This document shows, in pieces, positions 31,163 to 61,084 of a stretch of 64,000 nt of DNA (positions are counted from its first letter, which is position 1; each line of letters begins with the position of its first letter). Source of the stretch: a virus (taxonomy: Duplodnaviria > Caudoviricetes); the IMG/VR virus record IMGVR_UViG_3300006802_000002, positions 917-64,916 of that record, one strand, 5' to 3'. Both the position numbers and the translations under genes were made by a program. The notes below the pieces were generated by a model, which made no database searches, was not told where the DNA came from, and saw only the letters and a program-made list of their open reading frames with translations.

Positions 31163-32037
31163 TTATTGTCCTGGGGGAGTAAATAAACCATTTCCTTGGG
31201 GTGCTAATGCAGCAGCAGGATCAGGAGGAGCACTTTGACCCATTCCGGGCATTACATTGCCACCTTGTTCAGCATCGTCAAATGCAGCAGCTACATCGTC
31301 AGGAGTACCACCCATCTTAGCTTTAATTAGATTGGTGTTTAATTCTTGCATGAAAGTATCAACACCAGAAGGACCACCATCAGGAATTAACTTGTATTTA
31401 ATGCCTGCCTTTTCAGCTAACGTAGCAACCATAAGAAATACATTTTGGTCAATGAGCATCATAACATCAATAGACCAAAGACCTTGTTGAAATCCTGATA
31501 CAAGAGTACCTTTAGTAATATCTGCTACTGTAGCACCACTTTCTAATAGCGCAAGCATTTTAGGAAGTCTATCAGGTTTAACTAAAGTCTTCCAAATAAA
31601 ATTGACAGCTTCTTGTGGGTCCACATATTGAGGAGGTCTTTCCCAAGGAAATGATCCAGGAGGATGGGCTAAACCTTCACCAGGAACAGGGGCACTAAAT
31701 TGTGATGGCATTATTTCATACCCTTTTCTTCATCTTTAGCTTCATACTCATCTAGAAAATCCTTTAATTGACTATTGAAAGGTTTTCCATTCCACATAAA
31801 ATTACTATCAAAGCCGCCCTTTTGCGATTGCATAGCATTGCCTTGATTATATTGAGAAGTACCCTCTACAATACCTGTAGGTTGTGCTTTTCCAGGAGTA
31901 GCTTTATTAGAACTAGATTGACCAGCGTTAAAAGAACTATTATCCGTAATGGATTTGCCTTTTAAGCCACCGCCCCCTAGGAAAGCACTAACGCCCCCAG
32001 ATATCATATTTTTTGCGAGACTCCAAAACTCAAACAT
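31163..32037 (-). CDS. Two hypothetical virion-module proteins (31163-31711, 31711-32037)
   Basis: APVPGEGL...PWERPPQY motif in the 31163-31711 protein; coupled stop/start. Confidence 0.55.
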
Positions 32038-33551
32038 TATTTTAAGGCTCCTTGGAACATGCCAGCTAGGAAGTTACCGAATGCGTTCATGAATGCTGCA
32101 TCCTGCTCCTGATTAAACAATTCTTTCTTGCCTTGTGTATACAAAGCAATCTGTGCAAGTTTATTAAATCTATCTTCTTTATTTTCATTTGCGGTAAACG
32201 CCCATGCACTTTCGTCTCTATATTGCTGCCATTGTTTATCATACGCAGAATTAGAAATTTGCAGTTTATTAAGTGCGTTTAATCTATTTTCTTCATTTTG
32301 TGCAGCAGTATTAGTAGTATTAATTTGTCTGCGCCATTGTGTGTTAGCTTGCTGAACAACTAAATCATTTTGTGTGTTAAACTTATCTCTGCTATCTTGC
32401 ATGGTTTTATCAAACTTTTCCATAGAGTTTTCTTCACCAGCATTATATTGACTGATAGCAGTTCTTTGTGCAGCATTAAAGGTTGATACATTGGTTGCAA
32501 GATTGGCGTAGAATTCATTTGCTTGGTTCATATTGGAAGCATTAAAATTCTTCGCAGCATTATCCGCAGCTTGATTACTTAGTAAGAATTGGGACTTCTG
32601 TTGTGAATTTACAAGGGCTGCCTGTTGTTTATTATTAAGATTTTGTAAATCCATAGCCACAAGAGCATCGCTATCACCTTTGGCAATAGGTACAGCAGCA
32701 TCAATAATAGCTGCCATAATAGCTTGTCCTGCCATTGAGGAATTATCAATACCTCTAGCAGCAAGGATTTGTTGAGCCTTTCTAGCAGCACCAGAAGCCC
32801 ATGTTGGGAATTGTCCATCACTTCCAGGCTGTAATAGTTCATTTAATCTGCCACTAACTAAGTGAGAACTATCTATAGCAGCAGTAGCAGCTTCCATTAA
32901 AGCAGCATCTTGTTGCTGTTTATCTATTTGAGTGGCTTGATAAGTATTTACGCCTGTGTTTTGAGATGCCTCTGCCTGTCCTGCTTGTGCTTTGGATGTT
33001 GTAGAAGTACCCAAAGAACCAAGACTATTAGACTGCATAAATTCATTGGAATTTGCAGAAATATCATTAAAGTTTACTTCTGTACCAGGAGGCAATACAG
33101 GATTAGTAGCTCTAGTATTTGTGCTGTTTATAATAGCACTATTGCGGCTATCTACAGGCTGTTGATATGTTGGTGTAGTAGATGTTGTAGAGGCTGTAGT
33201 AGTTCCGGTGGACTCAGTGCTTCCTGTAGAACCGCCCCCACCACCTTCGTTACCTCCACCTGAACCATTTCCACCATTACCTGTTTCACCACCATTTCCA
33301 CCATTACCTGTTTCACCACCATTTCCACCATTATCTACGCCACCATTATCTACGCCACCATTATCTACGCCACCATTATCAGCAGTCATGGTAGGATTAT
33401 TGGCAGGGGCTCCCCCAGGCATTGTAGCTAATACTGGATCGGTACCATTAACCCCATTAACCCCTACGGACTGTGATAGCCCAGGATTAGGGGATTGCGT
33501 AGCTAATACTGGATCGGTACTAATAGTACCTAAACCTGCTTCTGTTGCCAT
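32037..33551 (-). CDS. Internal virion / DNA-pilot-like protein with Gly-Asn repeats
   Basis: Q/N/A-rich coiled region; DNGGV x3 and GNGGNGGET repeats. Likely start is MATEAG, coupled to the upstream stop. Confidence 0.55.
   Translation of the reverse strand: MATEAGLGTISTDPVLATQSPNPGLSQSVGVNGVNGTDPVLATMPGGAPANNPTMTADNGGVDNGGVDNGGVDNGGNGGETGNGGNGGETGNGGNGSGGGNEGGGGGSTGSTESTGTTTASTTSTTPTYQQPVDSRNSAIINSTNTRATNPVLPPGTEVNFNDISANSNEFMQSNSLGSLGTSTTSKAQAGQAEASQNTGVNTYQATQIDKQQQDAALMEAATAAIDSSHLVSGRLNELLQPGSDGQFPTWASGAARKAQQILAARGIDNSSMAGQAIMAAIIDAAVPIAKGDSDALVAMDLQNLNNKQQAALVNSQQKSQFLLSNQAADNAAKNFNASNMNQANEFYANLATNVSTFNAAQRTAISQYNAGEENSMEKFDKTMQDSRDKFNTQNDLVVQQANTQWRRQINTTNTAAQNEENRLNALNKLQISNSAYDKQWQQYRDESAWAFTANENKEDRFNKLAQIALYTQGKKELFNQEQDAAFMNAFGNFLAGMFQGALK
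33262..33380. repeat. In-frame tandem repeats (15-bp unit x3; 27-bp unit x2)
   Basis: CCACCATTATCTACG three times; CCATTTCCACCATTACCTGTTTCACCA twice. Confidence 0.85.
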
Positions 33552-34006
33552 TATATAAAGTTCTCCCAACCATAAACAGTATTGGTAGCATCGGTAGTGA
33601 TAGAACCTACGTTAGTTAATTGTGAACCGTCTACAGCAGGCAATTTACCGCTACTATCTAGTTGAACAATCTGGTTAGCTCCTGTACCTGCGTTAACATT
33701 TAATACAGGATTACCACCAACACCATTAGGAAATCCAATAGTTATTGTACCATTAGTGCAGGTTAATTGTACAGCAGCAAAAGCTCCCCCAGAGCTAGAC
33801 ACAACTAATCCTGTAGCTCCAGATAGACCATTTAAGCCCATATTAGTGATAGGAGAACCACCACCAGGAGTGCTATCATGGTTGTGCCCAGAACCAGCGT
33901 CCATAGCTGCTTGAAGCTTATTAAACTCCAGATTAAAGGAGTTACTTAGAATAGTTAAGTTAGGGGCTATTTGTGCGGATGCTTGTCTAGTATATCCAGT
34001 AGCCAT
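33551..34006 (-). CDS. Short tail-fibre adaptor protein
   Basis: MATGYTRQ...EFNKL...GHNHD N-terminal anchor; LDSSGKLPAVDGSQLT fibre motif. Confidence 0.7.
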   Translation of the reverse strand: MATGYTRQASAQIAPNLTILSNSFNLEFNKLQAAMDAGSGHNHDSTPGGGSPITNMGLNGLSGATGLVVSSSGGAFAAVQLTCTNGTITIGFPNGVGGNPVLNVNAGTGANQIVQLDSSGKLPAVDGSQLTNVGSITTDATNTVYGWENFI

Positions 34007-36412: not shown

Positions 36413-36946
36413 TTAGTTTACGCGAGTTGTGATAGCAGACACGTCCATAAGAACAGCAAATACACGAAGCTTTGCGTCAGGAACAGCAGTACCTACAGTG
36501 ACACGTACAGTAGTACCGTTTGTACTCGAAACAATATAGCCAATAGCACCAGAAGCAGTAGACGAGGCAGTATTTACGGTCCATGTTGGAGAGCTTAAGA
36601 GAATGCCGGTAGCACTTACGCTTGTAGCTGCAATCATAGTAGTAGCTGGAGCCACTAGAGCGACTGCAATTGTGCCGTTAGTGTTTGCGGTAGCTGCACG
36701 TTGCTTATCTAGACCCGCAAGCAGGACTAAAGTATTTGTAGGAACAGGTAGAACGTCGATAGTATCACCTGAAACTACAGAAGTTAGTGCAGTGTAGTAG
36801 TTGTTTTGATAAGTAGATGCGACTACAGCGGTTGAGCTAAGGTCGAAAATCTTATCAACATTGTACATGACTGGCACATCGCGTGTGGTCTCATGTAATG
36901 GGCTTGAGGTTGAGTTATAACCTAGTGCGACAACAAAGTTAGCCAT
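36413..36946 (-). CDS. Putative capsid decoration protein (very Ser/Thr-rich)
   Basis: Follows the MCP, precedes the terminator; beta-rich composition. Confidence 0.6.
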   Translation of the reverse strand: MANFVVALGYNSTSSPLHETTRDVPVMYNVDKIFDLSSTAVVASTYQNNYYTALTSVVSGDTIDVLPVPTNTLVLLAGLDKQRAATANTNGTIAVALVAPATTMIAATSVSATGILLSSPTWTVNTASSTASGAIGYIVSSTNGTTVRVTVGTAVPDAKLRVFAVLMDVSAITTRVN

Positions 36947-38010: not shown

Positions 38011-38508
38011 CTAAAGTGCTTTGGCTGCGTGTCTTATTAGGTCCTTAAATTCATTTTCTGAATAATCAGACTTCATTTGATTAATAAACCAACACACCCA
38101 TCTAACATTATCTTTTGTGTATCCTTTAGAGCTGTCTATTCTATCTAGAGAACCCTGATAAGGATTTTTAATACCTGGGACTTTAGAATATTCTAAAGGT
38201 AATCCAGTAAACGTGCATAAACCATTTTGCTTATTCCATAAATCAGTGAGAAATTGGTAATCTATGGAAAATTCATATTTATTTCTATGTCTAGCCTGTC
38301 CTAAGCTATACATAACAAAGCCTTCAAAAGAATTTCTATACTTATTTTTTAAATCTTTTATAAAGGCTTTATTATTTTTTCTATATTCTTTTGAGCTAAG
38401 TGCTTGACATTGCTTACAAATTGATCGTTTTCCGTACTTCCCGCCCTTATGTTTATCAAATTCTTCTAAGTCTTTGATTTCGTGACAGGAAGTACATTCT
38501 TTATTCAT
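38011..38508 (-). CDS. Free-standing HNH-like homing endonuclease
   Basis: CTSC...CKQC, CTFTG and SLDRIDSSKGYTKDNVRWVC; own promoter TTGACT-N17-TAAACT at about 38517-38545. Confidence 0.8.
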   Translation of the reverse strand: MNKECTSCHEIKDLEEFDKHKGGKYGKRSICKQCQALSSKEYRKNNKAFIKDLKNKYRNSFEGFVMYSLGQARHRNKYEFSIDYQFLTDLWNKQNGLCTFTGLPLEYSKVPGIKNPYQGSLDRIDSSKGYTKDNVRWVCWFINQMKSDYSENEFKDLIRHAAKAL

Positions 38509-43984: not shown

Positions 43985-45634
43985 TTAATATCCAAACTGT
44001 TTATCGGCAGGAACAAATTTAGGACTCCTAGTGGGGTTGTTCCTGTCTACCATTAACCCACCAATAGTTATAGGACGTGACATTAAAGCGTATCTGAGAG
44101 CATCATAAGCATGATCTTCGGCGTCAGTATCAACATCTTCTACGTCATTTTCGTCTAGAGGAAGTCTAGGTAAAGTCCTAATAAGGTTAACACAATTATC
44201 AAAAATTGTCAAATAAGGCTTTCCAGTCCTTGGATTTATTGCCAATCTTCTATGTAACTCTGCTTTACCAGAAATACGGGAATTTCTAGCCCCTTGTACA
44301 GCCACACGTCCAGAAGGCTTCCAGCGGCATCCCATTTCATTCATAGTTTGACCAATACTTGGCCCCATTTCACCCCTACGAGACCATGCAGAAATGTCTA
44401 AAATACCGTATGACACATTTTCACCCGACTCTAGCTCTAATAGTTTTAAAGCTACGTCTGGGGCTGTCATGTTCTTAAAGTACATTTCTCTATAAACTAC
44501 AATCTCTTTATCTGGGGTTACAGCCAACCAAAGGATACAGCCAGGACTAGTATAGCCCCAATCTCCACCCCTAAAGCGAGGCCAACTAGAAGGAATAGGA
44601 TAAGATTTAGTAACGTGGATATCTTTATTAAACTCAGGAAATGCTGCACCCTCGAATACATCCCAATCTCCATCTAAGAATTGTTTACGCTTAGTTTCAG
44701 GTAGATTAGCTAGCATTGCTGCGTAGCTTAAGTCATATGTAAGATAAGGATTATCCCACACTTTGGCAGGAATAAATCTACGAGTAATTACTTCTTCTTT
44801 TTCTCCAAGAGGAGTTTTAATATTTACTTTAACTTGGAAGGGAATACCTGGAGGAGCAGGATCAATAAACTGTTCTCTTACCCATGTTGATCCAATATTG
44901 CCTGGGTTTCCTGTAGCTCTAAGCATAATTGGTACATTAGGATCAGTAGAACGTAAGCTTGAACGTAGCATGTCCAATACTTCCGCACTATCGTATTGTG
45001 GAAGCTCGTCTACACCAATCCAAGAATAAGATTGACCCTGATAACGTAAAACGTCTTTAAGTGTTTCAGCGTATCCGAATTCCATACGGGCGCCAGAAGG
45101 AAAGTAGAATGTGCTGTCTTGTGCTTTCCATTTAGTGTCTGGGTATGCTTTTAAATAAAGCCCATGAGCCTTGAAAATAAGGTCTCTTAATTCAGGCATT
45201 GTACGACGAATGAGCACGCCTCTAAATGCTCCATGTCCACAATAACGTAATGGATCGATAAGCATTGCGTAGCTTTTACCGCCTCCTCTAGCACCGCCAT
45301 AGAATACTTCTCTTTCAGAAGCAGCTAGAAATGCAGTTTGGGGACCTTCATTAGGGCGGAAAATGACATTTTCATCAGGAATAGCTACTTTAGTAGCAAG
45401 TACATCTGCAACTTCTTTAGTAGTTACAGCAACTCCAGTAGATAATAAATCTTTCTCTTTTTGAGCTAACTCATACTCTAATTTAGCTTGAGCTAATGCT
45501 TCTTCTTTAGCTTTTAATTCTTCTTTAGCACGTTTAACAGAAGGTTTAGCAAATGCTTTTGGCTTCTTTAATCCATTTCTATTTCCTTTAGAAGTTAATT
45601 TGACTACTGGAGGAGGTACGTCTTTAAGCGTCAT
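43985..45634 (-). CDS. terL: Terminase large subunit
   Basis: YGGARGGGKS Walker A, IGVDE Walker B, ATGNPG, nuclease DWG and DHAYDALRY. Confidence 0.95.
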   Translation of the reverse strand: MTLKDVPPPVVKLTSKGNRNGLKKPKAFAKPSVKRAKEELKAKEEALAQAKLEYELAQKEKDLLSTGVAVTTKEVADVLATKVAIPDENVIFRPNEGPQTAFLAASEREVFYGGARGGGKSYAMLIDPLRYCGHGAFRGVLIRRTMPELRDLIFKAHGLYLKAYPDTKWKAQDSTFYFPSGARMEFGYAETLKDVLRYQGQSYSWIGVDELPQYDSAEVLDMLRSSLRSTDPNVPIMLRATGNPGNIGSTWVREQFIDPAPPGIPFQVKVNIKTPLGEKEEVITRRFIPAKVWDNPYLTYDLSYAAMLANLPETKRKQFLDGDWDVFEGAAFPEFNKDIHVTKSYPIPSSWPRFRGGDWGYTSPGCILWLAVTPDKEIVVYREMYFKNMTAPDVALKLLELESGENVSYGILDISAWSRRGEMGPSIGQTMNEMGCRWKPSGRVAVQGARNSRISGKAELHRRLAINPRTGKPYLTIFDNCVNLIRTLPRLPLDENDVEDVDTDAEDHAYDALRYALMSRPITIGGLMVDRNNPTRSPKFVPADKQFGY

Positions 45635-46028
45635 TAATTAGTGCTCTTTGCTTTTCTTTGCGTAATTTTTTTGAAGTGATGCCTTTTTTAGCTTTTAAAT
45701 ACTTAAGTGTTTCTTTTTTCTTAGTTAAATATAAATGCACATGGGAAACGTACTCGCCTGTGGTTTGTCGCAACCATTCCGCAGCATCACGATAACTTAC
45801 ACCTTCATCCAAATATTCTAAAGCCTTTTCTAAAGCATAAAGCTTTTCATAATCTGCCTGAAATAGATTTTTATCCTTTGGATTTCGTGTGTATCCATAA
45901 GGAGGTCTATATTCTTTACGCCCTTTATTGTGGGCTCTTACAAAGTGCTCAGGATACTTCTGTTTTATCTTTGGGAGGTAGGATAAATATTCCGATTGGT
46001 TTGTCACTTTGTACCTGTACTCTATCAA
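45624..46028 (-). CDS. Hypothetical HTH-like DNA-binding protein
   Basis: PPYGY, SYRDAAEWL...YVSHVHL; basic C-terminus. Confidence 0.55.
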   Translation of the reverse strand: MIEYRYKVTNQSEYLSYLPKIKQKYPEHFVRAHNKGRKEYRPPYGYTRNPKDKNLFQADYEKLYALEKALEYLDEGVSYRDAAEWLRQTTGEYVSHVHLYLTKKKETLKYLKAKKGITSKKLRKEKQRALINDA

Positions 46029-46326
46029 TTTTACCTAGACCGCCACGGTCTAAGATTTCTTTAGCAGCAGCTAGCTTACGATCTTGTCCTGGAAGTTCTG
46101 GAGTTTCCATTACTTCAATCATATTAGTTACAGCTTTAGGGGCATGTAGAGCTAAATAATTAGCTGCGCGCTTGATAATCTCATCCTTAAGCTTGTCTGT
46201 TAGCCAGCTTGAAGTTGTAACACCTACGTAGCCAGCTAAATTTCTGGCTTTAGTTACGTCTCCATTAGCCTCATCAAACAAAACATCTAGGAATTTAAGC
46301 TGTTTTTCAGTAAATTCAGCAGTCAT
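45949..46326 (-). CDS. Putative terminase small subunit
   Basis: TEKQLKFLD...A...AGY, AAKEILDRGG, FILPPK; upstream of TerL. Confidence 0.65.
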   Translation of the reverse strand: MTAEFTEKQLKFLDVLFDEANGDVTKARNLAGYVGVTTSSWLTDKLKDEIIKRAANYLALHAPKAVTNMIEVMETPELPGQDRKLAAAKEILDRGGLGKIDRVQVQSDKPIGIFILPPKDKTEVS

Positions 46327-46327
46327 T

Positions 46328-46459
46328 TTACTTCTTTCTGGATTTACCCGCCTTAGACATAGCAATAGCTACGGCTTGTTTCTGTGGTTTGCCCGCTTTC
46401 ATTTCAGTTTTAATGTTTTGCGAGACAACTTCCTTGGATTTACCTTTTAAAAGAGGCAT
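46328..46459 (-). CDS. Small basic protein [16 protein letters not shown]...QAVAIA (below the ORF-track cutoff)
   Basis: Hand translation, 43 aa; the QAVAIA motif is common in small phage proteins. Confidence 0.7.
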
Positions 46460-46623
46460 TAGCCGAATTGAGCCTTAAAATCTTGCCCTTTTATCTTAGG
46501 TCCAGGCTTAGTTTTACGCATTGGGGGCATTTTAGCAGTATCTTGAAACTTTTTAGTCATTACATCACCACCAGTCTTTAGTTTTTGTACTGGATGGGCC
46601 TTTTTACCATTAATTCCTGACAT
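46459..46623 (-). CDS. Small basic protein [19 protein letters not shown]... (54 aa)
   Basis: Hand translation; AAGGAG RBS; stop coupled to the next start. Confidence 0.55.
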
Positions 46624-48397
46624 TTTCGTTCTCCTTACAGTATTTACGCCACAAAGTCTTTAAAATTCTAACAAAAAAGTATGGTTTAACCATAGATAAG
46701 TATTCTTTTACATTCTTTTCTCTAATATTTTTACGATATTCTACTAATTTATTATAATCGTTTGCAAATGAAACTGCAAGATTAATATATTCTTCTTTAG
46801 TTTTAGTAATAAATTCTTCTAATTTACATTGAGTAAGAATTCCTGCACCATAACATCCCATAATTGTGTCACCACGTAAAGTAATTACAGGGACGCCCAT
46901 AGTTAAGGACTCAAAAGTTGTAGTAGAACCATTAAAAGCAAAGGTATCTAACTGTAAATCTACTTTATTATAACAAGATAAGTGATTTCCGAAGTTATTA
47001 TCACCTACATCAAAGATACATTTATCTTTTGGAATGTATTTTAATACTTTATTTTGGAATTCTGGGTTCTTCCAAAGCCCTTTATACTTGAAATAAAACT
47101 TACAATTACATTTGCTAGATATTTGGTGCCAAGTTTCTAGCACTTTTTCGTTTAGTTTAGCTGGATTATTGAATACGCCAAAGGTAATATGCCCATTTGT
47201 AAGCGCTGGTAAAGCATTTGGCTCAGGCGCTTCTGCAAAATAGGGATGCTGATAGAACCTAGGCATGCCTATAATGCGCTCTACACCGATATCTTTAATA
47301 TGTCTTGGCGCAAAATGCCTTCCAATTATAAGATAATCCATATTTGGAATAATAGTACGACCTGCGTCAAGATAAGAAATTTGTATAGGGGCGGCCCTGT
47401 ATGCAGCGATAAGAGGGCGATTACTATCAAACAGAGGACATAAATAGACCACAACATCACATTGATCTTCCCTAATCATTCTGGCAACTTGATCGTCAGA
47501 TACACCATGAATACTAACGTATTTTACAGAACCTTGTCTATAAGCTTGTGTAATTTCATCTTCTTTTGGAGTATTGGCGTAACACACAAACTCTACAAAG
47601 TTTCTATCTGTGTTAGTGAATACCGAGATAAAGTTACGACCTACAGGATGGGCGTATAAGTCGCTAGATACAATACCAACCCTAAGCTTTCTGTTGGGAT
47701 TTAAATTATTCTTTAATTCACCAAACTTAATGTCTTGCTTTACGAATTTTCTAATCCATTCTTTTTGGGCTTCTTCTACAGCTTTTACATCTACTTCTGG
47801 GCAGTAAAGATAGCAAGTTAATAAGTTCTTAAATACGTCTGGAGAGTTTTCATTATATTTAGCCATTAATTTAGCGTACTTAATAGCTTGTGTGTAATCC
47901 CCTAGAGCCTTATAAGCCAATCCCATATTGTTTACTGTGTATTCTTGTTCGGGGGCAATGGCTAGGCTAATATTATAATATCTGATAGCCGCATTAAAAT
48001 TATACTTTTTAAATTCTAACACTCCAAGAGTATTAAAACATACAGAGTCATATGGGCACATAGCATTATAGACTTTAGCCCATCTAATGCCCTCATCGTA
48101 TCTAGAGCATCTATTACCTGCATCAGCACCATATGATGCAAACATAGCCATAGGGTCTTTGGCTACAGCATAGTAGTTTTTACAATGCTCTAAGCAAGCT
48201 GGAAAATCAAATAATTGATATGTGACTAATACAAGATTGCACAAAGCTTCTTCTGAATATGGATCATGCTTTAATGCGCTCTCTAGCTGCTTTCTACATA
48301 ATTCTTTTAGGCCCTGCTCAAAAGACTTTACAGCAAGGTTAATATCAGCAATTGCTTTTTGCCTATGCTTAAAACTGACTTTGGCTTTAATCTTCAA
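46610..48397 (-). CDS. TPR-repeat GT41 protein O-glycosyltransferase (SPINDLY/OGT-like)
   Basis: N-terminal TPRs, then RKLRVGIVSSDLYAHPV, ARMIRED, RAAPIQ, ITFGVFNNPAK and DLQLDTFAFNGSTTTFESLTMGVPVITL. Confidence 0.9.
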   Translation of the reverse strand: MKIKAKVSFKHRQKAIADINLAVKSFEQGLKELCRKQLESALKHDPYSEEALCNLVLVTYQLFDFPACLEHCKNYYAVAKDPMAMFASYGADAGNRCSRYDEGIRWAKVYNAMCPYDSVCFNTLGVLEFKKYNFNAAIRYYNISLAIAPEQEYTVNNMGLAYKALGDYTQAIKYAKLMAKYNENSPDVFKNLLTCYLYCPEVDVKAVEEAQKEWIRKFVKQDIKFGELKNNLNPNRKLRVGIVSSDLYAHPVGRNFISVFTNTDRNFVEFVCYANTPKEDEITQAYRQGSVKYVSIHGVSDDQVARMIREDQCDVVVYLCPLFDSNRPLIAAYRAAPIQISYLDAGRTIIPNMDYLIIGRHFAPRHIKDIGVERIIGMPRFYQHPYFAEAPEPNALPALTNGHITFGVFNNPAKLNEKVLETWHQISSKCNCKFYFKYKGLWKNPEFQNKVLKYIPKDKCIFDVGDNNFGNHLSCYNKVDLQLDTFAFNGSTTTFESLTMGVPVITLRGDTIMGCYGAGILTQCKLEEFITKTKEEYINLAVSFANDYNKLVEYRKNIREKNVKEYLSMVKPYFFVRILKTLWRKYCKENENVRN

Positions 48398-48450
48398 GTA
48401 TAACTCCTATATTGCAAAGAGATTATACTTGAAGATGTGTTAATAGTCAA
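48390..48450 (-). promoter_or_regulatory. Near-consensus sigma70 promoter overlapped by a 14-bp inverted repeat that covers the GT41 start codon
   Basis: TTGACT-N17-TATAAT (48450-48422); arms at 48390-48403 and 48423-48436. Confidence 0.8.
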
Positions 48451-49278
48451 TTATAGAATGGTTAAGCGAACTAAACCTTTACCACCTACACCGGCTATAC
48501 CTGCGGAACCTTTACCACCGCCACCCCCGCCACCATCACCACCGTTACCACCATCACTGGCATTGCTATTTCCACCAGCATTACTAAATGTGGATACCCC
48601 GATGGTTGGGGTAATTTGTCCTCGCACAATTCCTCCAGGACCTAACCAGCCTCCTCCTCCTCCACCACCACCATTACCTATTACGTTATTTCCACCACCG
48701 CCACCAGGAGAGACACCATTACCACCATTAGCTCCACCATTTCCCCCAGCTTCGTCGTAGTTTCCTGCTCCACCACCACCACCACCAACAGAGGAGCCGT
48801 TTCCATTGCCCCCAACACCACCAAGCCTATTTACACTTCCTCCTGTGGATATGGTACCACTAGTTCCACCAGTAGAGCCGGAAGCAGAAGCACCAGGAGG
48901 ACATACAATAGATACATAGCGCCCTGCTACAATGCCTGTAACTGTGGTACTTGCAGTACTGCCAGAACTTGCTACATAAATATTAAGCTGTCCATCCATA
49001 CCAAAAAGAGGTATTTTTAAATATGAAAATGATCCAGCTTGACCACCACCACTATAATTAGTGCTACTTCCGCCGTTACCACCACAACCAACTGCCTCAA
49101 TAACTAAAAACGATTTATTAATTGGAATAGCTACTGAAACAATAGTATTTGTTGTAGTGTAATTTGTTATAGTTGGAGCATCATCCGCAGTAGAGCCGCC
49201 AGAAGGCCAACCCTTAAAGTTGGAGAATTCTGATAAAGCTCCCCTAGGAAAGCTATAGAACTCAGAGCCAGTTGCCAT
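48451..49278 (-). CDS. Glycine-rich tail-fibre/receptor-binding domain protein
   Basis: IEAVGCGGNGG...GGQAG, poly-Gly runs, terminal GGKGLVRL. Confidence 0.7.
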   Translation of the reverse strand: MATGSEFYSFPRGALSEFSNFKGWPSGGSTADDAPTITNYTTTNTIVSVAIPINKSFLVIEAVGCGGNGGSSTNYSGGGQAGSFSYLKIPLFGMDGQLNIYVASSGSTASTTVTGIVAGRYVSIVCPPGASASGSTGGTSGTISTGGSVNRLGGVGGNGNGSSVGGGGGGAGNYDEAGGNGGANGGNGVSPGGGGGNNVIGNGGGGGGGGWLGPGGIVRGQITPTIGVSTFSNAGGNSNASDGGNGGDGGGGGGGKGSAGIAGVGGKGLVRLTIL

Positions 49279-49700
49279 TAGAGTTGCCCTGACTCACAAA
49301 CAATGTGCACGCCGGTATTGGTTGTAGAAGTTGCTTTAAGTTTATTGGTAGAGCCACCAGTACCACCAGGAAGAACTAGACCAACCAAGGCAGGAACAGT
49401 TGTGTTAAACATAATAGAAGTAGAAGTACCAGTTACAGCAGTTACCGCAGTCTCAGCAATAAGCCTATTTGTAGTGCCATTATCTGCGCTTACATACCAT
49501 CTAATAAGACCTACAGAAGATGTGCCTGGAATACTTACAGAAACTCTTGAAATACGCTTACCTACGCCAGAACCAGCAGTAGTAGCAGGACCAGAAGCTA
49601 CGTCAGCCATTGCTGTAGCAGCAGTAGCAGAAGTATCCGCAGTACCAATAACTGCATACTCTAGAATTGGAGTAGCTACGAATTGTGATTGATTAGCCAT
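49278..49700 (-). CDS. Fibre-associated Ser/Thr-rich protein
   Basis: Between the fibre and Gly-rich genes; beta-rich composition. Confidence 0.55.
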   Translation of the reverse strand: MANQSQFVATPILEYAVIGTADTSATAATAMADVASGPATTAGSGVGKRISRVSVSIPGTSSVGLIRWYVSADNGTTNRLIAETAVTAVTGTSTSIMFNTTVPALVGLVLPGGTGGSTNKLKATSTTNTGVHIVCESGQL

Positions 49701-49772
49701 TTATATGTCTCCTAGTTTTATCTTTGGACAAATCCTATATTAATGTTTATACTTAAATACTATAGGGAATGT

Positions 49773-51095
49773 TTAAGTATATTGAAGCCAGCCGAATAAA
49801 GGATCACTACCACCGTTTGCGACAGGAAGCGCACCCGTAACGTCAGTAGTTAAATCTACCTTACCAAAAGCGTTTGTGATACCATCAGAGGATCTTAAAA
49901 CAGTACCAGAAGCAGAAGCTGTTAAGCTAGGTACTCCAGAGCTATTAGTAACTAATGCAGCAGAGTTTACAACAGTAACCTGTGCAGCAGTTCCTGTAGC
50001 ACTAGCATATAAAATACCATTAATAGTTAGGGCAGCAGGTAGAGTATATGCAGAAGCTACTACGTTAGTGCCGTCACTTTGTAAGAAAGTACTTAAAGTG
50101 CCTATTGCTGTGGGAATAGTATACGACGAAGTTACTATATCTGTACCATTAGAAGCTAGGAAAGTACCAATAGCACCAATGGCAGTAGGAACAGTATATG
50201 AAGATGTTACTATATTTGTACCATTGCTTCTTAAAAACGTACCTAGTGCACCTATGGCAGTTGGAACTGTATAGCTTGATATTACTACGTTAGTGCCGTC
50301 AGAGGTTAAAAATGTACCCTGTGTAGCTGCTACGCTAGGATATGTAGCTGTAGTCCATGTAGGAGCAGCAGTACCTTGAGATTGTAAATGCTGCCCTGTA
50401 GTACCGGCAGCGGTTATTCCCAGGTTTGTAGCAGTACCATATACAACACCACCAGAAGAAGCGCTTAAACCATGTCTAGCTAAAGCTAATGTACCAGCAG
50501 TAATAGCTGTAGCATCTAGCGTAATATTTAAATTAGCCGCTGTAACTAATTGACCTTGTGCGTTTACTTGGAAAGTAGCTACAGCATCTGTTGTACCATA
50601 TGTACCAGCAGTAACTGTAGTGTTCTTTAAGTAAATAGTTCCAGTAGTTGTGATAGAAGCTGTAGAACCTGTGGAAGAAGTAGCTAAACCTGTTCCAACG
50701 TCTATTTGGGTTACTGTACCAGAACCACCAGCAGGTAAGCTAAAGAAGCCTTTAATACCTCCTGCATCAGTACCATAATATTTACTATTACCTGGGGCAG
50801 CGCTATCGTTTACAAGTGTAATAGTTCTATCAGAAGTTAAATCGCCACCACCTGTTATAGAACTTGAAGTATTAATAGCTCTAGTATTTACCACAATGGT
50901 ACTGGAAACGCTTAATGAAATAGCACCAGTAGTATTGTCTAGAGTTATTAAAGAAGAACCTGATATTAGAGATAGTACACCAGCATTTGCAACAGTTACA
51001 GACCCTACTCCAGAAGTAGGGGTTACTGTAATTCCTGTACCAGCTACTATTCTAGTTACTGCTGCACTTCCACCGGCTACTGCTCTTAAGCCCAT
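49773..51095 (-). CDS. Tail/head fibre protein with four 25-aa repeats
   Basis: GGGDLTSDRTI, VTAGTYG, VNAQGQLV and VTGALPVANGG fibre motifs; GTFLxSxGTxxVxSSYTVPTAI repeats. Confidence 0.75.
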   Translation of the reverse strand: MGLRAVAGGSAAVTRIVAGTGITVTPTSGVGSVTVANAGVLSLISGSSLITLDNTTGAISLSVSSTIVVNTRAINTSSSITGGGDLTSDRTITLVNDSAAPGNSKYYGTDAGGIKGFFSLPAGGSGTVTQIDVGTGLATSSTGSTASITTTGTIYLKNTTVTAGTYGTTDAVATFQVNAQGQLVTAANLNITLDATAITAGTLALARHGLSASSGGVVYGTATNLGITAAGTTGQHLQSQGTAAPTWTTATYPSVAATQGTFLTSDGTNVVISSYTVPTAIGALGTFLRSNGTNIVTSSYTVPTAIGAIGTFLASNGTDIVTSSYTIPTAIGTLSTFLQSDGTNVVASAYTLPAALTINGILYASATGTAAQVTVVNSAALVTNSSGVPSLTASASGTVLRSSDGITNAFGKVDLTTDVTGALPVANGGSDPLFGWLQYT

Positions 51096-51359
51096 TATTG
51101 AGGTCCTTTATATAAACCTAATTTATACATTATCCAAATTAGAGGAATGAGCAAATATCTCATTACTTACCTTCGACGTTGGGTAATTCTAACTGAGAGC
51201 CTGTGTTTTCTACTAATTTGAGTTCTTTAACTCGCTTAATTACTTCCATGGCAGGACTAGCCATAACCCAAGGAAGATTACCAATATGATTAACTAGCTC
51301 CTGCATATCTGCATGAGTGAATTGATATACTACATTATCCATATTTTACCTTTTAAAAT

Positions 51360-51436
51360 TGGTGCGGGCATTAGGATTTGAACCTAAAACATTATGCTCC
51401 CAAAGCATATGCTCTACCAAATTGAGCTACACCCAC
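51360..51436 (-). tRNA. tRNA-Pro(TGG)
   Basis: Reverse complement GTGGGTGTAGCTCAATTTGGTAGAGC...TATGC-TTTGGGA-GCATA...GGTTCAAATCC...CACCA. Confidence 0.88.
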
Positions 51437-51537
51437 TAAATTACTCGTTTTATAAGTTTAACTATTTCTTGTCCAATAGTGTATATCACTACGAAAGGAT
51501 ATAAAATAGTCAGTAATAAATATTTTAAATATTTCAT

Positions 51538-52336
51538 TTAAGTACCAGGACCAAATGTCATTGAAATTGTACTAGCTTCTCCTGCTTTGCATCTTATTGC
51601 AAATGCACTACCAGGAATATTAAAGATTTCTATAGCTCCAGATTTAAGTCTAGTAGCTCCAGGATTAGCTGGTGTACCTCCACCAGTGTTTAATGTTGGA
51701 ACAGTACAAGTTAATCCTGCTGTACTAGTACCCCATACAATAAAAGCATCGTTAGCACCTTCACAAGTTATACGAACTTGAGGACCATCTGTAGGTACCG
51801 TATAGGCTTCACTTGCAGAACTTGAGCAAGTGAATTCGTATGACCTACTTCCAATTACAGAGAATATTTGAGTCTGGATCATGTTTTTCCTTATATGCCT
51901 CTAGAAGCTCATTAGAAGGCCGTACAGAGGCTTTGGCGTGTTTGGGCTAGGGTGTATAGGGGAAAGGGTTTAGACTTTATTAAAATCTTATTTAAACGAG
52001 AACTAGAGTGGCTGCAACTGTATCGGTAGAGGGAGCAATGAACCTACCACGTACATAGGGAACTGCTACAGTGACTAGAGTTGCTCCAGCAGTAGTAGGA
52101 GAACTTGATGCAGTGATTGTGGTAGAAATTGTTTGGAAAGGTCCAGCAGAACTATACGAACCTTCTAAGCGAGCAGTAGGTGCAGTACCTGATGTAATGA
52201 ATGCCATAAGGTATCTTTGAATATTTCCAGTGACATTGCGAGGTACAGCAAATACAGTACCTACGATATCAGCAGTACTAGTTCCGTTTGTAGAGTCGAT
52301 TAGAGAAATAGTTTTTAGAGGTACAGATACAGACAT
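51538..52336 (-). CDS. Two 114-aa Ser/Thr-rich putative virion proteins (51538-51882, 51992-52336)
   Basis: RBS present; beta-rich; first genes of the leftward arm. Confidence 0.6.
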
Positions 52337-52386
52337 AAATTTTTAACTCCAGATATAAGAATTCTTTAGTACAGAATACAGAATAG

Positions 52387-52395
52387 ATTATAGCA
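52387..52395 (-). promoter_or_regulatory. Extended -10 promoter for the leftward structural arm
   Basis: TGcTATAAT on the minus strand, about 50 nt upstream of the first gene. Confidence 0.6.
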
Positions 52396-52439
52396 CAAAT
52401 TAATTAGAACATAAATATTTAAAAATGCAAGATATTTTC

Positions 52440-52930
52440 TAATTTTTTATGCTTTTCTCCAGGACACATTAATGAACATTAGAATGTCATATATAGGTTC
52501 ATTTATAATTATTATGTATTTTATAATAGAATTTGTATATTAAGAATATTATGAATTGTTTATTATATTTAAGATATATGTATTATATTAAGTATTTTCA
52601 TATATAACTTCATATAAGAAAGGATTTAAAATATATAATAATATCAATAGATTATATTATAATATTATGTATATATTAGTATTATAAGATATTATATATA
52701 ATATATAATATATATTATCTTATTCTTATACGTAGGAAGAAATTCTAGATTTCAAGGGGTAGTATGAAAAATATTTTATCCTTATCTGTAGGTTCATTAA
52801 TAAAAGGGTTTAAGTGCTATTAACACTTCTGTAGTTTTATTTTTTCTGGGTAAATTCGAGCTAGGGAAGTTATAGGAAATTTGAATTTGTTTATATGTGT
52901 ACTATTAACACTTCTGTATTTAGGTATTTT
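52440..52930. other. Extremely AT-rich non-coding element (origin-like), copy 1, with 17-bp direct repeats
   Basis: TATA-rich run; CTATTAACACTTCTGTA at 52817-52833 and 52902-52918. Confidence 0.55.
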
Positions 52931-53547
52931 ATAGGGGTATGGTATAACGCACCGTGGCCCGACCGATGGACCAAGCCCCCCAGTGTATACGCTCATTTAT
53001 ATTTATTAATGGCCCATGCACTCGCGTTAATTACTATAAATGTTTGTTTAAGTATATCGTGAGGCTAGCTTAGAATGTACATAAATTAGTTGTAGAATGT
53101 ATTGATAAGTACATAAAATTCTTGTGGGAAAGCCGGTCAAGGGAGCTGCAATGTATGCAAATATATTAACAACCTATGCAAATATATCATACCTTACATA
53201 TACAAATCTTTATTAGTTAATAAATCCAACCCATTAATAATTAAAAGTTAATATTCAGCTAATAATATATCACGCTAACCCATTGTTATCATTCAAACAC
53301 ATATTTCGCGTGTATAAGAAAAAATGGCCGTGTCAAAAAGTGTGCCAATGCACTTGACCGGGTATCCTAGGCGTTTCCCTTAGTTCAGGGTCAAACCCTC
53401 TAGAAAACGCTCTAATGAGTTTTTAAAGGCATATATCAATCCGATATAGCCTTGAAATATTCTTTCAAATACACTAAGGCATATACTAGTTAGCATTTGA
53501 TCCAATTTAATTCTTTCTCGCCTCATTGGGCGCCATATATAGAGACG

Positions 53548-53576
53548 TTGCAAACCGCCCTTAGCCGTGCTACATA
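53548..53576 (+). promoter_or_regulatory. Early host-type promoter
   Basis: TTGCAA-N17-TACATA (GCTACATA). Confidence 0.6.
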
Positions 53577-53740
53577 ATGGGCACCGGGCGACGCTATGCC
53601 CTGCCAAAACCCAAAGGGGTACACATGAATATCTTCAATTTCCGTATGCAAAAGGTCGGAGGGATTATGTTCCTTCGGCTTGGCAAGCTTTGCGTATCGT
53701 TCTGTATCTCTTCTAAACCTTTCTCAAGGGAGAGCTAATC

Positions 53741-54059: not shown

Positions 54060-55538
54060 ATGCATACTTACTTTCCGAAGGCTAACAAGTTTCCGGGCCT
54101 TTGCGCTTTCTGCAATACGGCTGTAGATGCTTATGCAGGGACATATATCTATGTGAAGAAAGAGGGAGGTGGATTTAATCGCAAGGGTCGCCCGGAAGGC
54201 AGTTCACATATCTTTTGCTTCGCTCATTTCGAGGAGGCAAAACATGGGGAAATTCGCTTTGATCGCAAGGGTCAACCTATCTCTAAGGATAATCAGGATA
54301 ATTTGAGCGATGAAACCATAGAACAATGGTTTACCAATAATCAGAATTTAATCTCTAAGCATATGAGCATGGTTAGGCAGCTAACGCTTAACGGGTATTC
54401 TAAAGAAACTATTAAAGAACATATTTTAAAGGCTGAAAAAGCCTTAGATGAAATCGACGCCAAACCTATCGAGGAAACTAAAGATGATGATATGGGCAAC
54501 CTTGGGGGAATCCTTAAGCGTGCCCTAGAAAGCCATGAGAACGTCGAGGAAGGCAATCAAGACAATTCCGAGGGTTTCCCCTCGGATGACGCTCAAACTC
54601 TCGCAAAGATGATCCAAAAGCTTGCGGGAAAGGCTAGCGTGGATGAAAGGCAGGTAGCGAATATCGTTCGCAATGAAATTGAGGGGCTTACTCAATTGCT
54701 TGTGGACGTTGAAACCCGCATGGATAGCAAGATTGCAGCTATCCAAACCACTCCCCCGACCAAGCTTGAAATTAAACAGGGCAATGATATCAAGCTTATC
54801 GACACGGGTTTGCAACATGAAATCCTGCCCGATGTTCTCGTGCCTATCTCGCAAGGCTTGCACGTCTTTCTTGTGGGGCCGGCTGGTTCAGGCAAAACCA
54901 CTATTGGGGAGCAAATCGCTAAGGCTGTTGATAAGCCCTTTTATTCAACGGGGGCCGTTGATAGCAAATATGCCTTGATTGGCTTCAAGGATGGACATGG
55001 CAACTATCAAAGCACGGTATTCCGTAAGTGTTTTGAAGAGGGTGGCGTATTCCTCTTTGACGAAATGGACGCTAGCAGCGCCAATGCCTTGCTATCGTTC
55101 AATGCTGCCCTAGCTAACGGTCACTGTGATTTCCCCGACGGTATCGTTACGCGCCACCCTGACTTTGTGGCAATCGCAGCGGCAAACACTTTCGGGCATG
55201 GCGCAGACCGTATCTATGTGGGTCGCAATCAGCTTGATGCCGCTACCTTGGATCGATTTGTAACGGTCGAAATGGGATATGACGCCAAGCTAGAGCGTGC
55301 AATGTGTGGCAATGATCCGCTTGCCGTTCGTTGGGTTGATTATGTGCAGCGTACCCGCAAGGCAGTTACGGACCTGCAAATGAGGTACGTGGTTAGCCCT
55401 AGGGCTTCGCTACAAGGCTCCAAGCTTCTTTCCGCTGGCATGGATAGCGGCAAGGTGGCGAAGGCTACCCTCTATCGCGCTATGAAGTCGGAGGACATTG
55501 CCAAGGTACAGGCACACACTGGAACGTTTAACGTCTAA
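54060..55538 (+). CDS. MoxR/CbbQ/CobS-like AAA+ ATPase with N-terminal Cys/His domain
   Basis: GPAGSGKT, FLFDEMD, AAANTFG, RNQLDAATLDRF and SPRA motifs. Confidence 0.88.
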   Translation: MHTYFPKANKFPGLCAFCNTAVDAYAGTYIYVKKEGGGFNRKGRPEGSSHIFCFAHFEEAKHGEIRFDRKGQPISKDNQDNLSDETIEQWFTNNQNLISKHMSMVRQLTLNGYSKETIKEHILKAEKALDEIDAKPIEETKDDDMGNLGGILKRALESHENVEEGNQDNSEGFPSDDAQTLAKMIQKLAGKASVDERQVANIVRNEIEGLTQLLVDVETRMDSKIAAIQTTPPTKLEIKQGNDIKLIDTGLQHEILPDVLVPISQGLHVFLVGPAGSGKTTIGEQIAKAVDKPFYSTGAVDSKYALIGFKDGHGNYQSTVFRKCFEEGGVFLFDEMDASSANALLSFNAALANGHCDFPDGIVTRHPDFVAIAAANTFGHGADRIYVGRNQLDAATLDRFVTVEMGYDAKLERAMCGNDPLAVRWVDYVQRTRKAVTDLQMRYVVSPRASLQGSKLLSAGMDSGKVAKATLYRAMKSEDIAKVQAHTGTFNV

Positions 55539-55613
55539 GGCTTTGGCTTGAGGAAGCTAGAAAGGCTTCCTCTTTCTTAAGCTTTCGACCACTAACCAAA
55601 GGGAATTAGGAAC

Positions 55614-56438
55614 ATGGTGCACAAGGTAGAATTCGACAGTCTGGAAAGCCTCTTAAGGTATGTAGAGACTGCGCCACATATTCCGGGTCGTTTGCGAGTC
55701 TCTGAAAAAAACGATCACGAAAGTCTTACTTGGACTGGGGGCTTAACGCTACCCGAAGCTATCCGTTCGGCGCGGTATGGCTGGAAAGAGGGTTATGACA
55801 AGCTAGCGCAATCTATGTCAGCAATTCCTACCGCTATTTCCTTCGCCAAAATTCCTAGCATGGGCTTAGACGTAGCCGGATCATTCCCCTTCATTCCGGC
55901 CGCAGTAGCCGGTGACCCTCTGAATATGTGGTCTCTTAACGAGGATAGCTCTAAAACAAAGCCAGTTATTCGTATTTATCAGCGTCTTAGTTATACCGCC
56001 AATGTTAACGCTTCAAACATTATGAATTTTGGCGCGGCCGTTCTTAGCCTTGTCGATGGTCTAGAAGATGCTGGTTATAGGACGGAAATATTCGGGTATC
56101 GGTCTAGCGAAACTCTCTATAAAGAGATTAATTTCCAAACAATCAAGCTTAAAGAAGCCTCTGAACCATTGGATGTTAGCCGATTGTCTTTTCCGTTTGC
56201 TAATCCTGCCATGCTGAGACGCGTTCTGTTTAAACTTTCTGAGGTGCATCCGAACGTTGCCTTTTGCCGCGTGTATGGGAAATCATGTGCGGCGGACCCT
56301 AAACTATTTGAGCCGAATAGCATCGTCATACCTACCGCTCCCGGGGTAATCCCATGCGGCACTCTTAAGGATGCAGTCGAATACGTGAAAGGCTTTGTTA
56401 AAGCTTCCCCTTGGGCGGACGCTATCGAATTTGAGTAG
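55614..56438 (+). CDS. vWA-like partner of the AAA+ ATPase (putative)
   Basis: Directly downstream; G..A.....D.LE..G..TEI and HP-like NPAMLRR pattern of phage AAA partner proteins; canonical MIDAS DxSxS not seen. Confidence 0.55.
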   Translation: MVHKVEFDSLESLLRYVETAPHIPGRLRVSEKNDHESLTWTGGLTLPEAIRSARYGWKEGYDKLAQSMSAIPTAISFAKIPSMGLDVAGSFPFIPAAVAGDPLNMWSLNEDSSKTKPVIRIYQRLSYTANVNASNIMNFGAAVLSLVDGLEDAGYRTEIFGYRSSETLYKEINFQTIKLKEASEPLDVSRLSFPFANPAMLRRVLFKLSEVHPNVAFCRVYGKSCAADPKLFEPNSIVIPTAPGVIPCGTLKDAVEYVKGFVKASPWADAIEFE

Positions 56439-60147: not shown

Positions 60148-60232
60148 GCCCGCATGGCGGAATTGGGAGACGCGCCTCGCTTAAGACGAGGTATCGTAAG
60201 GTGTGGGGGTTCAAGTCCCTCTGCGGGCACCA
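60148..60232 (+). tRNA. tRNA-Leu(TAA)
   Basis: GCCCGCA/TGCGGGC acceptor, CCTCG-CTTAAGA-CGAGG anticodon arm, long variable arm, CCA. Confidence 0.93.
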
Positions 60233-61006: not shown

Positions 61007-61084
61007 GGCCCCTTAGCTCAGTTGGATTAGAGCAGTGAATTTCTACTTCACGGGTCACAGGTTCAAGTCCTGTAGGGGTCACCA
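61007..61084 (+). tRNA. tRNA-Arg(TCT)
   Basis: GGCCCCT/AGGGGTC acceptor, GTGAA-TTTCTAC-TTCAC anticodon arm, GGTTCAAGTCC, CCA. Confidence 0.92.

Follow-up and report, generated by a model that had tools for sequence, protein, structure and literature searches.

The window analysed here is a stretch of 64,000 nucleotides (nt) that corresponds to bases 917-64916 of the IMG/VR virus record IMGVR_UViG_3300006802_000002 (Duplodnaviria; Caudoviricetes). At 46610..48397 on its minus strand we found a gene with a TTG start, encoding a protein of 595 amino acids (aa) that combines tetratricopeptide repeats (TPRs) with a glycosyltransferase domain of family GT41 and resembles the plant enzyme SPINDLY (SPY). 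The protein is a full-length, apparently active SPY-type GT41. It is a real and undescribed phage variant from a rare clade that is tied by position to tail-fibre modules. We propose that it glycosylates the proteins of the adjacent fibre module, to which we assign a probability of around 0.45; the case for the fibre as the target is positional. That the carrier is a genuine phage with a complete record is clear, as the source is a 64,916-bp virus genome with direct terminal repeats and a completeness rating of 100%. An earlier interpretation, made from the sequence alone (the first-pass annotation), had seen in this region a candidate system for virion O-glycosylation, and it is partly supported by the results described below.

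The protein shows the typical GT41 layout, with TPRs at around residues 20-200 followed by a GT-B catalytic region at around residues 229-590. The PFAM model PF13844 (Glyco_transf_41) matched it in two stretches with an E-value of 6.3e-28 (97.8 bits against a cut-off of 25), and the models TPR_2, TPR_1 and TPR_14 matched within residues 27-184. A six-frame search of the whole record likewise placed PF13844 above the cut-off. The reading of this open reading frame (ORF) as a full-length TPR and GT41 protein, and the profile check that the first-pass annotation had suggested for it, thus both held. Among solved structures the best relative is SPY, the protein O-fucosyltransferase of Arabidopsis (PDB 7Y4I, 8DTF). 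The entry 7y4i was matched at E 2e-58 over phage residues 147-589, and an unbroken alignment to SPY residues 392-847 spans both catalytic lobes. The OGT of Thermobaculum (TtOGT, 5djs) followed at E 1e-45. The match to human OGT was much weaker (E around 1e-25 to 1e-20) and split into two stretches, and a structure of the HMW1C type (3q3e) gave a weak direct match (E 7.5e-6).

To trace the active site, residues were mapped via the HMMER alignment to SPY, with roles as described in excerpts of PMC9715652. The catalytic lysine of SPY, K665 (K842 in human OGT), which acts at the donor phosphates, corresponds to phage K414 within the FNNPAK motif, and the active-site histidine H495 (human H558) to H250 within HPV. 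Its aspartate partner D491 (human D554) corresponds to D246, N661 to N410, and H728, which stacks on the base, to H472. The phosphate loop T747-T749 is represented by S491-T493, A664 (Y841 in human OGT) by A413, L439 (H498 in human OGT) by T194 and the gate residue Y744 by F488. According to the same excerpts, the change K665A kills SPY activity, H495A and H495F are both dead, and mutation of K665, H495 or T748 abolishes or cripples activity (PMC9715652). The phage counterparts of these three, K414, H250 and T492, as well as H472, are invariant in 23 of 23 aligned sequences. In the same alignment D246, N410, F488 and S491 are invariant too, and T493 is nearly so. The earlier observation that HPV and the FNNPAK lysine are kept is thus borne out, and the nucleotide-sugar pocket is not degenerate, given that the binding residues are invariant.

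Like SPY, the phage protein is predicted to consist of TPRs and a bilobal GT-B domain that lacks the intervening domain of metazoan enzymes, and it retains K414, H250, D246, N410, A413, H472, S491-T493 and an aromatic gate residue (Y744 in SPY, F488 in the phage). Unlike SPY, it has far fewer TPRs (595 versus 914 aa in total) and is encoded by a phage. In addition, S496 of SPY is replaced by P251, and E567, G570, T572 and G593 by Y318, P321, F323 and D344, as in the bacterial relatives, while the gate is a Phe and not a Tyr. Considering that the SPY-specific residues Y744, S496, E567/G570/T572 and G593 are all different, the protein is best described as SPY-like and not as a SPY orthologue. 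The features of metazoan-type OGT are lacking as well: F488, A413 and T194 take the place of C917, Y841 and H498 (residues from the excerpts of PMC9715652), and the alignment to OGT is broken.

The first-pass annotation had drawn attention to two deviating segments and had suggested that they form a new pocket. The strings it quoted were all located where it had placed them, namely YLCPLF (residue 318), YLDAG (342), HPV (250) and FNNPAK (409), as well as STSATAWT and STASTASTT in the tail. YLCPLF and YLDAG are the counterparts of the SPY segments VELTGHTANNK (which harbours the alleles E567, G570 and T572) and TWIGYP (G593). In homologues from Burkholderiales, Alphaproteobacteria and Magnetospirillum the same two segments read xLAGRFDxNR and SxHDPATSG, and within the region D324, N326, R327 and S341 are invariant in the 23 sequences. 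Since the deviation is common to the bacterial SPY-like homologues, it reflects neither decay specific to the phage nor a new pocket; judged from the alignment, it marks a large bacterial and phage SPY-like subfamily as distinct from the plant and animal enzymes. The other part of the suggestion, a donor other than the N-acetylglucosamine (GlcNAc) nucleotide, is still likely because of the gate residue F488. The residue at this position was proposed to set the size of the sugar pocket, and its equivalents are C917 in human OGT, Y419 in TtOGT and F517 in ApHMW1C, a GT41 enzyme that uses uridine diphosphate (UDP)-glucose (excerpts of PMC9715652). A Phe at the gate would thus argue against UDP-GlcNAc and for a smaller sugar. 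Sugar-nucleotide synthesis genes were absent among the 42 window proteins that were scanned against PFAM, and the donor must therefore be supplied by the host.

Compared with the syntenic relative L004, the ratio of non-synonymous to synonymous substitution rates (dN/dS) of the GT41 gene is 0.13. This value and the invariant catalytic residues rule out a pseudogene or a spurious ORF. A role in DNA glycosylation was rejected as well, given that proteins are the substrates of GT41 enzymes and that the PFAM scan revealed no pathway for hypermodified bases.

The gene lies, as the first-pass annotation had it, between the terminase genes and five Ser/Thr-rich genes. Downstream are TerS (45949-46365) and TerL (43985-45634), both on the minus strand and assigned with PHROGs. 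Upstream is a cassette of five ORFs on the same strand, of 275, 140, 440, 114 and 114 aa, with Ser+Thr contents of 19.3, 27.1, 29.8, 24.6 and 29.8%, respectively, and with 6-11% charged residues. Four of the five are within the top five Ser+Thr values of the 52 ORFs tabulated, and the Gly-rich one ranks eighth. Genomic context could be compared for three lineages of the GT41 clade, these being the window together with L004 and L064, a second podovirus (L065) and a siphovirus provirus (L006). In L004 and L064, whose GT41 is 78% identical, the whole cassette is syntenic, and GT41 is found on the same strand directly downstream of the fibre module. In L065 (38% identical) the order is a tail-tubular-B-like gene, a 469-aa Ser/Thr-rich fibre-like gene, a 257-aa Gly-rich gene and, after a gap of 13 nt, GT41, followed by a peptidase gene and large genes of internal-virion size. 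In L006 (34% identical) the tape measure gene is followed by tail genes for 594, 306, 331, 416 and 134 aa, then GT41, a gene for 105 aa and the endolysin. GT41 thus directly follows fibre-like genes in all three lineages (3/3). It is possible, and we hold it tentatively, that tail-fibre modules took up members of a small, phage-restricted SPY-like GT41 clade on at least three occasions, twice in podovirus lineages and once in a siphovirus, where the enzyme would O-glycosylate receptor-binding fibre or adhesin proteins. As a separate observation, the fibre-like protein upstream of GT41 in L065 (6987-8396) shows a sub-threshold match to CBM_5_12 in two stretches (E 4.4e-5; 23.8 bits against 26.2).

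The same arrangement bears on the idea that the protein acts mainly via its TPRs and helps to assemble or chaperone the fibre or Gly-rich proteins, with sugar transfer being secondary or lost. This idea is in keeping with TPR domains serving as scaffolds for protein binding and with the frequent presence of genes for dedicated assembly factors just downstream of fibre modules; in addition, the Gly-rich gene adjoins GT41 in two lineages. Nevertheless, all nucleotide- and phosphate-binding residues that were tested are invariant across the 23 homologues, and the whole gene, including the part for the catalytic lobes, is under purifying selection (the dN/dS of 0.13), which would be unexpected for a dead enzyme. 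We therefore regard this role as highly improbable.

A word-indexed search with GT41 recovered 298 proteins at E<=1e-3. Six relatives had an identity of 62-79% (P0002-P0007, on contigs of up to 64,942 bp) and eight an identity of 34-39% (P0008-P0015), while the bacterial proteins were around 28-36% identical. In a FastTree phylogeny of 58 rows, P0001-P0015, P0026, P0031, P0036, L065 and L006 (identical to P0046) formed one clade of 21 with an SH-like support of 100, which contained no organism-named sequence, and the remaining GT41s from viral contigs scattered among the bacterial ones. As the tree was a quick one and came with composition warnings, a phage-linked clade of 21 members is likely but not proven. 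The clade seems to be rare: a scan of species-representative genomes gave nothing more than 33% identical to GT41, and two alignment-based scans of IMG/VR retrieved clade members on only two contigs beyond the window's own record. A scan of the viral contigs with the single GT41 sequence yielded no relative, whereas the alignment-based scans succeeded. Among 50,697 GenBank phage records there was no match to the whole GT41 (E<=1e-5) or to its catalytic half (E<=1), and a second, distant viral GT41 used as query matched three records via its TPR part only; with these two queries, none of the 50,697 records contained a GT41 catalytic domain. Three contigs (59.8, 98.9 and 22.2 kb; P0011/P0031, P0012/P0036 and P0013/P0026, respectively) each apparently carry two diverged GT41 paralogues of the clade, to judge from the equal lengths of the longest contigs listed for the paired proteins.

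The gene directly upstream of GT41 (48451..49278, minus strand) encodes the Gly-rich 275-aa protein (30.5% Gly, 19.3% Ser+Thr), a candidate fibre-tip or adhesin-type protein. It shares 48% identity with the Gly-rich protein whose gene directly precedes GT41 in L065, and the ESM-Atlas clusters closest to it are viral, PF21722 (Gly_rich_2) being present on 40-44% of their members (score 0.96). The protein itself had no PFAM match, even at E<=5. BLAST without composition correction revealed a similarity to Gly-rich ORFs from other modules, which composition-corrected HMMER did not recover. A word-indexed homologue search returned only the protein itself, since glycine words flooded the candidate list, and a scan of viral contigs with a three-sequence alignment gave 603 pattern matches, none of which was confirmed. 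A single-sequence AlphaFold2 model was unusable (predicted confidence, pLDDT, of 35). The predicted complex of GT41 (15-row alignment) and the Gly-rich protein (47-row alignment) scored 0.00 against a mark of 0.32, which, given that controls were lacking, is evidence neither way.

The next gene (49278..49700, minus strand; 27.1% Ser+Thr) encodes the 140-aa protein, which the AlphaFold2 model (pLDDT 92.1) predicts with confidence to be a small jelly roll. Its family comprised 57 cluster representatives at E<=1e-3, all of 96-167 aa. The best solved match of the model was the trimeric capsid cement protein of phage KHP40 (Z 9.7, root-mean-square deviation 3.0, 108 residues aligned) and the second the turret protein of HFTV1 (Z 8.7). 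The top matches in BFVD were uncharacterised Caudovirales proteins, of which a few are named virion structural protein. A Foldseek search of the PDB with the model gave nothing at E<=0.001, and none of the 51 members of the family alignment matched PHROGs.

The gene at 49773..51095 (minus strand) encodes the fibre-like protein of 440 aa, with 29.8% Ser+Thr, 5.9% charged residues and internal repeats. It has full-length relatives with an identity of 54-66%, and its partial relatives carry PF12789 (phage tail repeat-like), PF07484 (tail collar), PF19264 or PF21722; the protein had no PFAM or PHROG match of its own. The two 114-aa proteins are encoded at 51538..51882 (24.6% Ser+Thr; 83% identical in L004, dN/dS 0.22) and at 51992..52336 (29.8% Ser+Thr; 94% identical, dN/dS 0.07), both on the minus strand, the latter being the first gene of the minus arm. 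Neither matched a PFAM or PHROGs family. The cassette contains two further features on the minus strand that the first-pass annotation had missed: a conserved ORF of 59 aa (51163..51342), which is not Ser/Thr-rich and shares 43 matched residues with the positional 58-aa ORF of L004 in a simple global alignment, and a tRNA-Pro gene (TGG; 51360..51436, detected with ARAGORN and Rfam) that was not found in the close relative L004. Compared with L004, the dN/dS was 0.07-0.22 for four of the cassette genes (0.17 for the 440-aa fibre-like gene) and 0.51 for the fast-evolving Gly-rich gene, against 0.10 for TerL and 0.07 for the portal gene. On basis of these values, the cassette and GT41 genes are considered real. 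Searches of the GenBank phages by tblastn with the 440-, 275- and 140-aa proteins gave no match, although the low-complexity filter may hide some. Between the cassette proteins and further small virion proteins, or within either set, no significant paralogy was detected (a ten-protein search gave 0.007 as the best E-value).

To see how general this gene order is, viral contigs were scanned with a 12-sequence alignment of the 140-aa family, which yielded 50 viral loci (L119-L168), in 40 of which the gene was recovered by the ORF filter. Directly downstream of it a Gly-rich ORF (>=20% Gly) was present in 34 of the 40 loci, often with two or three in tandem. In three of the other six an ORF of 219-224 aa was found there, and in three the locus ended at the gene. 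Most of the 40 loci had a large Ser/Thr-rich ORF upstream. The module, consisting of a Ser/Thr-rich fibre, a jelly-roll protein of around 140 aa and one to three tandem Gly-rich proteins of around 310-350 aa, is thus widespread and has remained unnamed. Its tandem Gly-rich proteins share an N-terminal start of the FGFP type and a C-terminal end of the GGxGGNGYVxI type. The canonical fibre site of Pelagibacter phage HTVC033P has the same order, with fibre gp66, gp65 and Gly-rich gp64 (gp66-gp62 at L001 15000-21415). Both gp64 and gp62 are Gly-rich, and gp65 weakly matches the 140-aa family (E 4.6e-5 in a seven-protein search). The cassette thus has the fibre/jelly-roll/Gly-rich order of the modules in HTVC033P (gp66-gp65-gp64) and in uncultured Caudovirales. 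Unlike those modules, it is accompanied by GT41 and, being located upstream of TerS, comes on top of the canonical fibre site at 32037-34006. Given that the module recurs in viral loci and in HTVC033P, and that the canonical site is otherwise occupied, the cassette, on the similarity of its genes, appears to be an extra copy of this widespread fibre module.

That canonical site (window 32037-34006, minus strand) holds other genes than the fibre/jelly-roll/Gly-rich cassette. A 151-aa ORF matches, with its residues 4-53, the N-terminus of the HTVC033P fibre gp66 (643 aa), and a 510-aa ORF in a different frame overlaps it by 19 nt. The two could represent a split fibre gene, a frameshift, or an anchor and a separate fibre.

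Several observations weigh against a fibre target. The fibre module normally functions without GT41: a GT41 profile match was found in none of the 50 module loci (within 7 kb), and PF13844 in none of 25 whole module records, four of which are at least 90% complete. The Ser/Thr content of the module is not clearly higher in the presence of GT41. The GT41-less means were 24.1% for the 140-aa family (range 15.3-29.8), 23.3% for the upstream fibre (17.1-30.9) and 17.6% for the Gly-rich protein (13.1-24.4), and the window values of 27.1, 29.8 and 19.3% are in the upper part of these ranges, yet inside them. Furthermore, the adjacency involves three independent lineages only, the ends of fibre modules are common landing sites for accessory genes, and the cassette proteins are assigned to the virion solely by predicted fold and family resemblance. 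We also counted Ser/Thr-rich, low-charge genes of at least 140 aa within two genes of GT41 in 20 distinct viral loci, after merging near-identical ones (L010-L012 into one, L015/L017/L024 into one, and L004 standing for L064). Such a neighbour was present in 7 of the 20, compared with a background of 44 of 564 focal genes of unrelated phage loci (TerL 0/23), which speaks for a fibre target, and was lacking in the other 13, which speaks against it. Also in favour, a PHROG tail-fibre gene is located three genes upstream of GT41 in L018. Of the 56 loci from metagenomes and genomes (L063-L118), many of which are short, four contained a flagged ORF, either Ser/Thr-rich with low charge or Gly-rich, and two of these four are phage loci. 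Finally, GT41 could be expressed separately from the fibre genes. A sigma-70-like promoter (48422..48450, minus strand; TTGACT, 17 nt, TATAAT; 11 of 12 consensus matches), whose function is putative, sits between the stop of the Gly-rich gene and the start of GT41 and is followed by an AGGAG ribosome-binding site. L004 and L064 share both hexamers, AGGAG and the TTG start unchanged and differ in a single spacer base. With such a site of its own, expression apart from the fibre genes is possible.

These points feed a serious, if on balance unlikely, rival reading, in which GT41 targets a host protein (such as a pilin, a flagellin or some other protein with a surface or regulatory role) for superinfection block, receptor masking or a takeover of physiology, its position merely reflecting an accessory insertion site. 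The near-consensus promoter-like site with its conserved hexamers fits this, as does the fact that GT41 is dispensable for the fibre module, which lacks it in all 50 other viral loci, and so do the 13 loci without a Ser/Thr-rich neighbour. The cyanobacterial Ogt has been linked to pilin. The bacterial TPR-glycosyltransferases that have been characterised modify subunits of cell appendages, such as FlmG acting on flagellins (excerpt of PMC7591256). On the other side, GT41 is packed in a late structural operon that leaves no room for a promoter in L065 (the 13-nt gap) and L006 (overlapping ORFs), it directly follows fibre-like genes in all three clade contexts, and no host candidate protein can be named.

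One viral contig seen in the neighbour survey deserves separate mention: in L026 (958-19937) GT41 is flanked on both sides by giant proteins of 2,723 and 2,856 aa with 29-30% Ser+Thr, an arrangement that resembles an adhesin-plus-GT41 pair.

The first-pass annotation had favoured a broader virion glycosylation, in which a 177-aa capsid-associated protein, tail proteins and fibres would all be modified to give a glycan shield like that of mycobacteriophages. The 177-aa protein, encoded after the capsid gene (36413-36946), is indeed Ser/Thr-rich (26.0%, versus 16.6% in its homologue gp72 of the GT41-less HTVC033P), and the patches STSATAWT and STASTASTT both occur in the 532-aa tail-tubular-B-like protein. 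Virion glycosylation as such exists in mycobacteriophages (PMC12619734, seen as an excerpt). However, among the capsid and tail proteins compared with this single comparator genome, only the 177-aa protein stands out above HTVC033P. The coat (15.0 versus 15.1%), tail-tubular A (16.9 versus 23.2%) and tail-tubular B (20.1 versus 17.4%) proteins are scarcely richer, and the coat protein (313 versus 311 aa) has no C-terminal extension. We consider this scenario improbable. The underlying argument, that Ser/Thr-richness is a sign of glycosylation, did not survive: the 50 GT41-less module loci are similarly rich and so are the HTVC033P capsid and tail proteins. The suggested co-occurrence of GT41 with a raised Ser/Thr content of virion proteins across relatives failed when tested, and what was found comes close to equal richness in relatives lacking the gene. 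Ser/Thr-rich fibre proteins are common without a nearby glycosyltransferase, and composition alone is therefore no evidence of glycosylation.

Comparison with known systems indicates how a fibre-directed enzyme might operate. FlmG of Caulobacter, a protein of 596 residues with TPRs and a GT-B domain, transfers pseudaminic acid onto flagellin, and its TPR domain binds the flagellin substrates (excerpt of PMC7591256). In its description it has nearly the same size and layout as the phage protein, and it binds the filament subunit in the cytoplasm before export, so that it may serve, by analogy, as a working model for a TPR-glycosyltransferase that chooses a fibre-like substrate. Unlike the phage enzyme, FlmG needs a pseudaminic-acid pathway and a cellular flagellin; neither sugar-synthesis nor flagellin or NeuB-type genes were present among the 42 window proteins scanned. 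HMW1C and ApHMW1C also belong to GT41. HMW1C glycosylates the large, fibre-like adhesin HMW1, next to which it is encoded, and a Phe gate is found in both ApHMW1C and the phage protein. HMW1C is, unlike the phage GT41, an N-glycosyltransferase acting on Asn sequons, lacks TPRs and is distant kin. In the system of virion glycosylation associated with Freeman et al. 2023 (Cell Host Microbe), mycobacteriophages modify their own virion proteins with phage-encoded glycosyltransferases, the glycans being located on the C-termini of capsid and tail-tube subunits (excerpt of PMC12619734). The enzymes of mycobacteriophage virion glycosylation are not known to belong to GT41 or to contain TPRs. Here, in contrast, the coat has no Ser/Thr-rich C-terminal extension, GT41 is not beside the capsid gene, and the proteins considered as targets come from the fibre module of a podovirus that is kin to the Pelagibacter phages.

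In the reading that we prefer, glycosylation of the adjacent fibre module, the phage would carry an active, cytoplasmic SPINDLY-like GT41 protein O-glycosyltransferase. Within the infected cell its short TPR superhelix would bind extended Ser/Thr-rich stretches of the proteins encoded just upstream, the candidates being the 440-aa fibre, the 140-aa jelly-roll protein, the 275-aa Gly-rich protein and perhaps also the two proteins of 114 aa. The GT-B domain would then move a single small sugar, more likely a hexose or deoxyhexose than GlcNAc, from a host nucleotide-sugar onto Ser/Thr before the fibre is mounted on the virion. The expected effect would be a changed receptor binding, stability or shielding of this accessory fibre set.

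By sequence similarity, the phage is an uncultured HMO-2011/HTVC033P-like podovirus and kin of the Pelagibacter phages. Its TerL is 54.5% identical to that of HTVC033P, with the HMO-2011-type phages ranking next, and from TerS up to the N-terminus of the fibre the two phages share their gene order. According to PHROGs, the minus-strand arm encodes TerS, TerL, the portal, a scaffold-like and the major head protein, tail-tubular-A-like and -B-like proteins, internal-virion-protein-like proteins and a transglycosylase. The plus-strand arms encode a DnaB-like helicase, a family-A DNA polymerase, ribonucleotide reductase, ThyX, dCMP deaminase and an RNA ligase. GT41 has a G+C content of 34.4%, compared with 38.3% in the window and 41.2% in the cassette. 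Between the scaffold-like and major head protein genes a 165-aa endonuclease VII/HNH-like gene is present (38011-38508, minus strand; phrog_1035, E 4e-33). The HTVC033P counterparts gp74 and gp73 adjoin without such a gene, and it looks like a homing-endonuclease insertion. The divergent minus and plus arms are separated by around 1.4 kb (52337-53740) without a convincing ORF, possibly a regulatory or origin region. Besides the tRNA-Pro gene, there are tRNA genes for Gln (TTG, 3349-3422), Leu (TAA, 60148-60232) and Arg (TCT, 61007-61084), which makes four in all. The region 54060-56438 (plus strand) encodes an AAA ATPase (phrog_249, annotated 'porphyrin biosynthesis'; PFAM AAA_5) and a DUF7192 protein and has a G+C content of 47-48%, versus 38% for the window.

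The known roles of GT41 enzymes are in cellular regulation or in the modification of appendages. In line with the first-pass annotation, which knew of no characterised phage GT41, no characterised phage GT41 or OGT-like enzyme was found in the literature, as far as the texts were accessible, the items combining GT41 and phage being CAZyme tallies, phage display and bacterial work. The main text of the paper on HMO-2011-type phages (PMC9038755) contains no word beginning with 'glycosyl'. The roles listed for phage glycosyltransferases in the excerpt of PMC12619734 are DNA glucosylation, serotype conversion and mycobacteriophage virion glycosylation, and there glycosylation of phage-particle proteins has so far come from actinobacteriophages, with enzymes of other families. 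If the proposed function is true, the system would be the first in which a GT41 enzyme glycosylates a virion, and also the first in which proteins of the host-recognition organelles are glycosylated among relatives of the phages of Gram-negative aquatic bacteria. The role of the sugar would be to tune the host range or to protect the fibre. In addition, the bacterial-type SPY-like class, most members of which lack a known substrate, would gain co-encoded candidate substrates, and a post-translational layer would be added to host recognition by phages.

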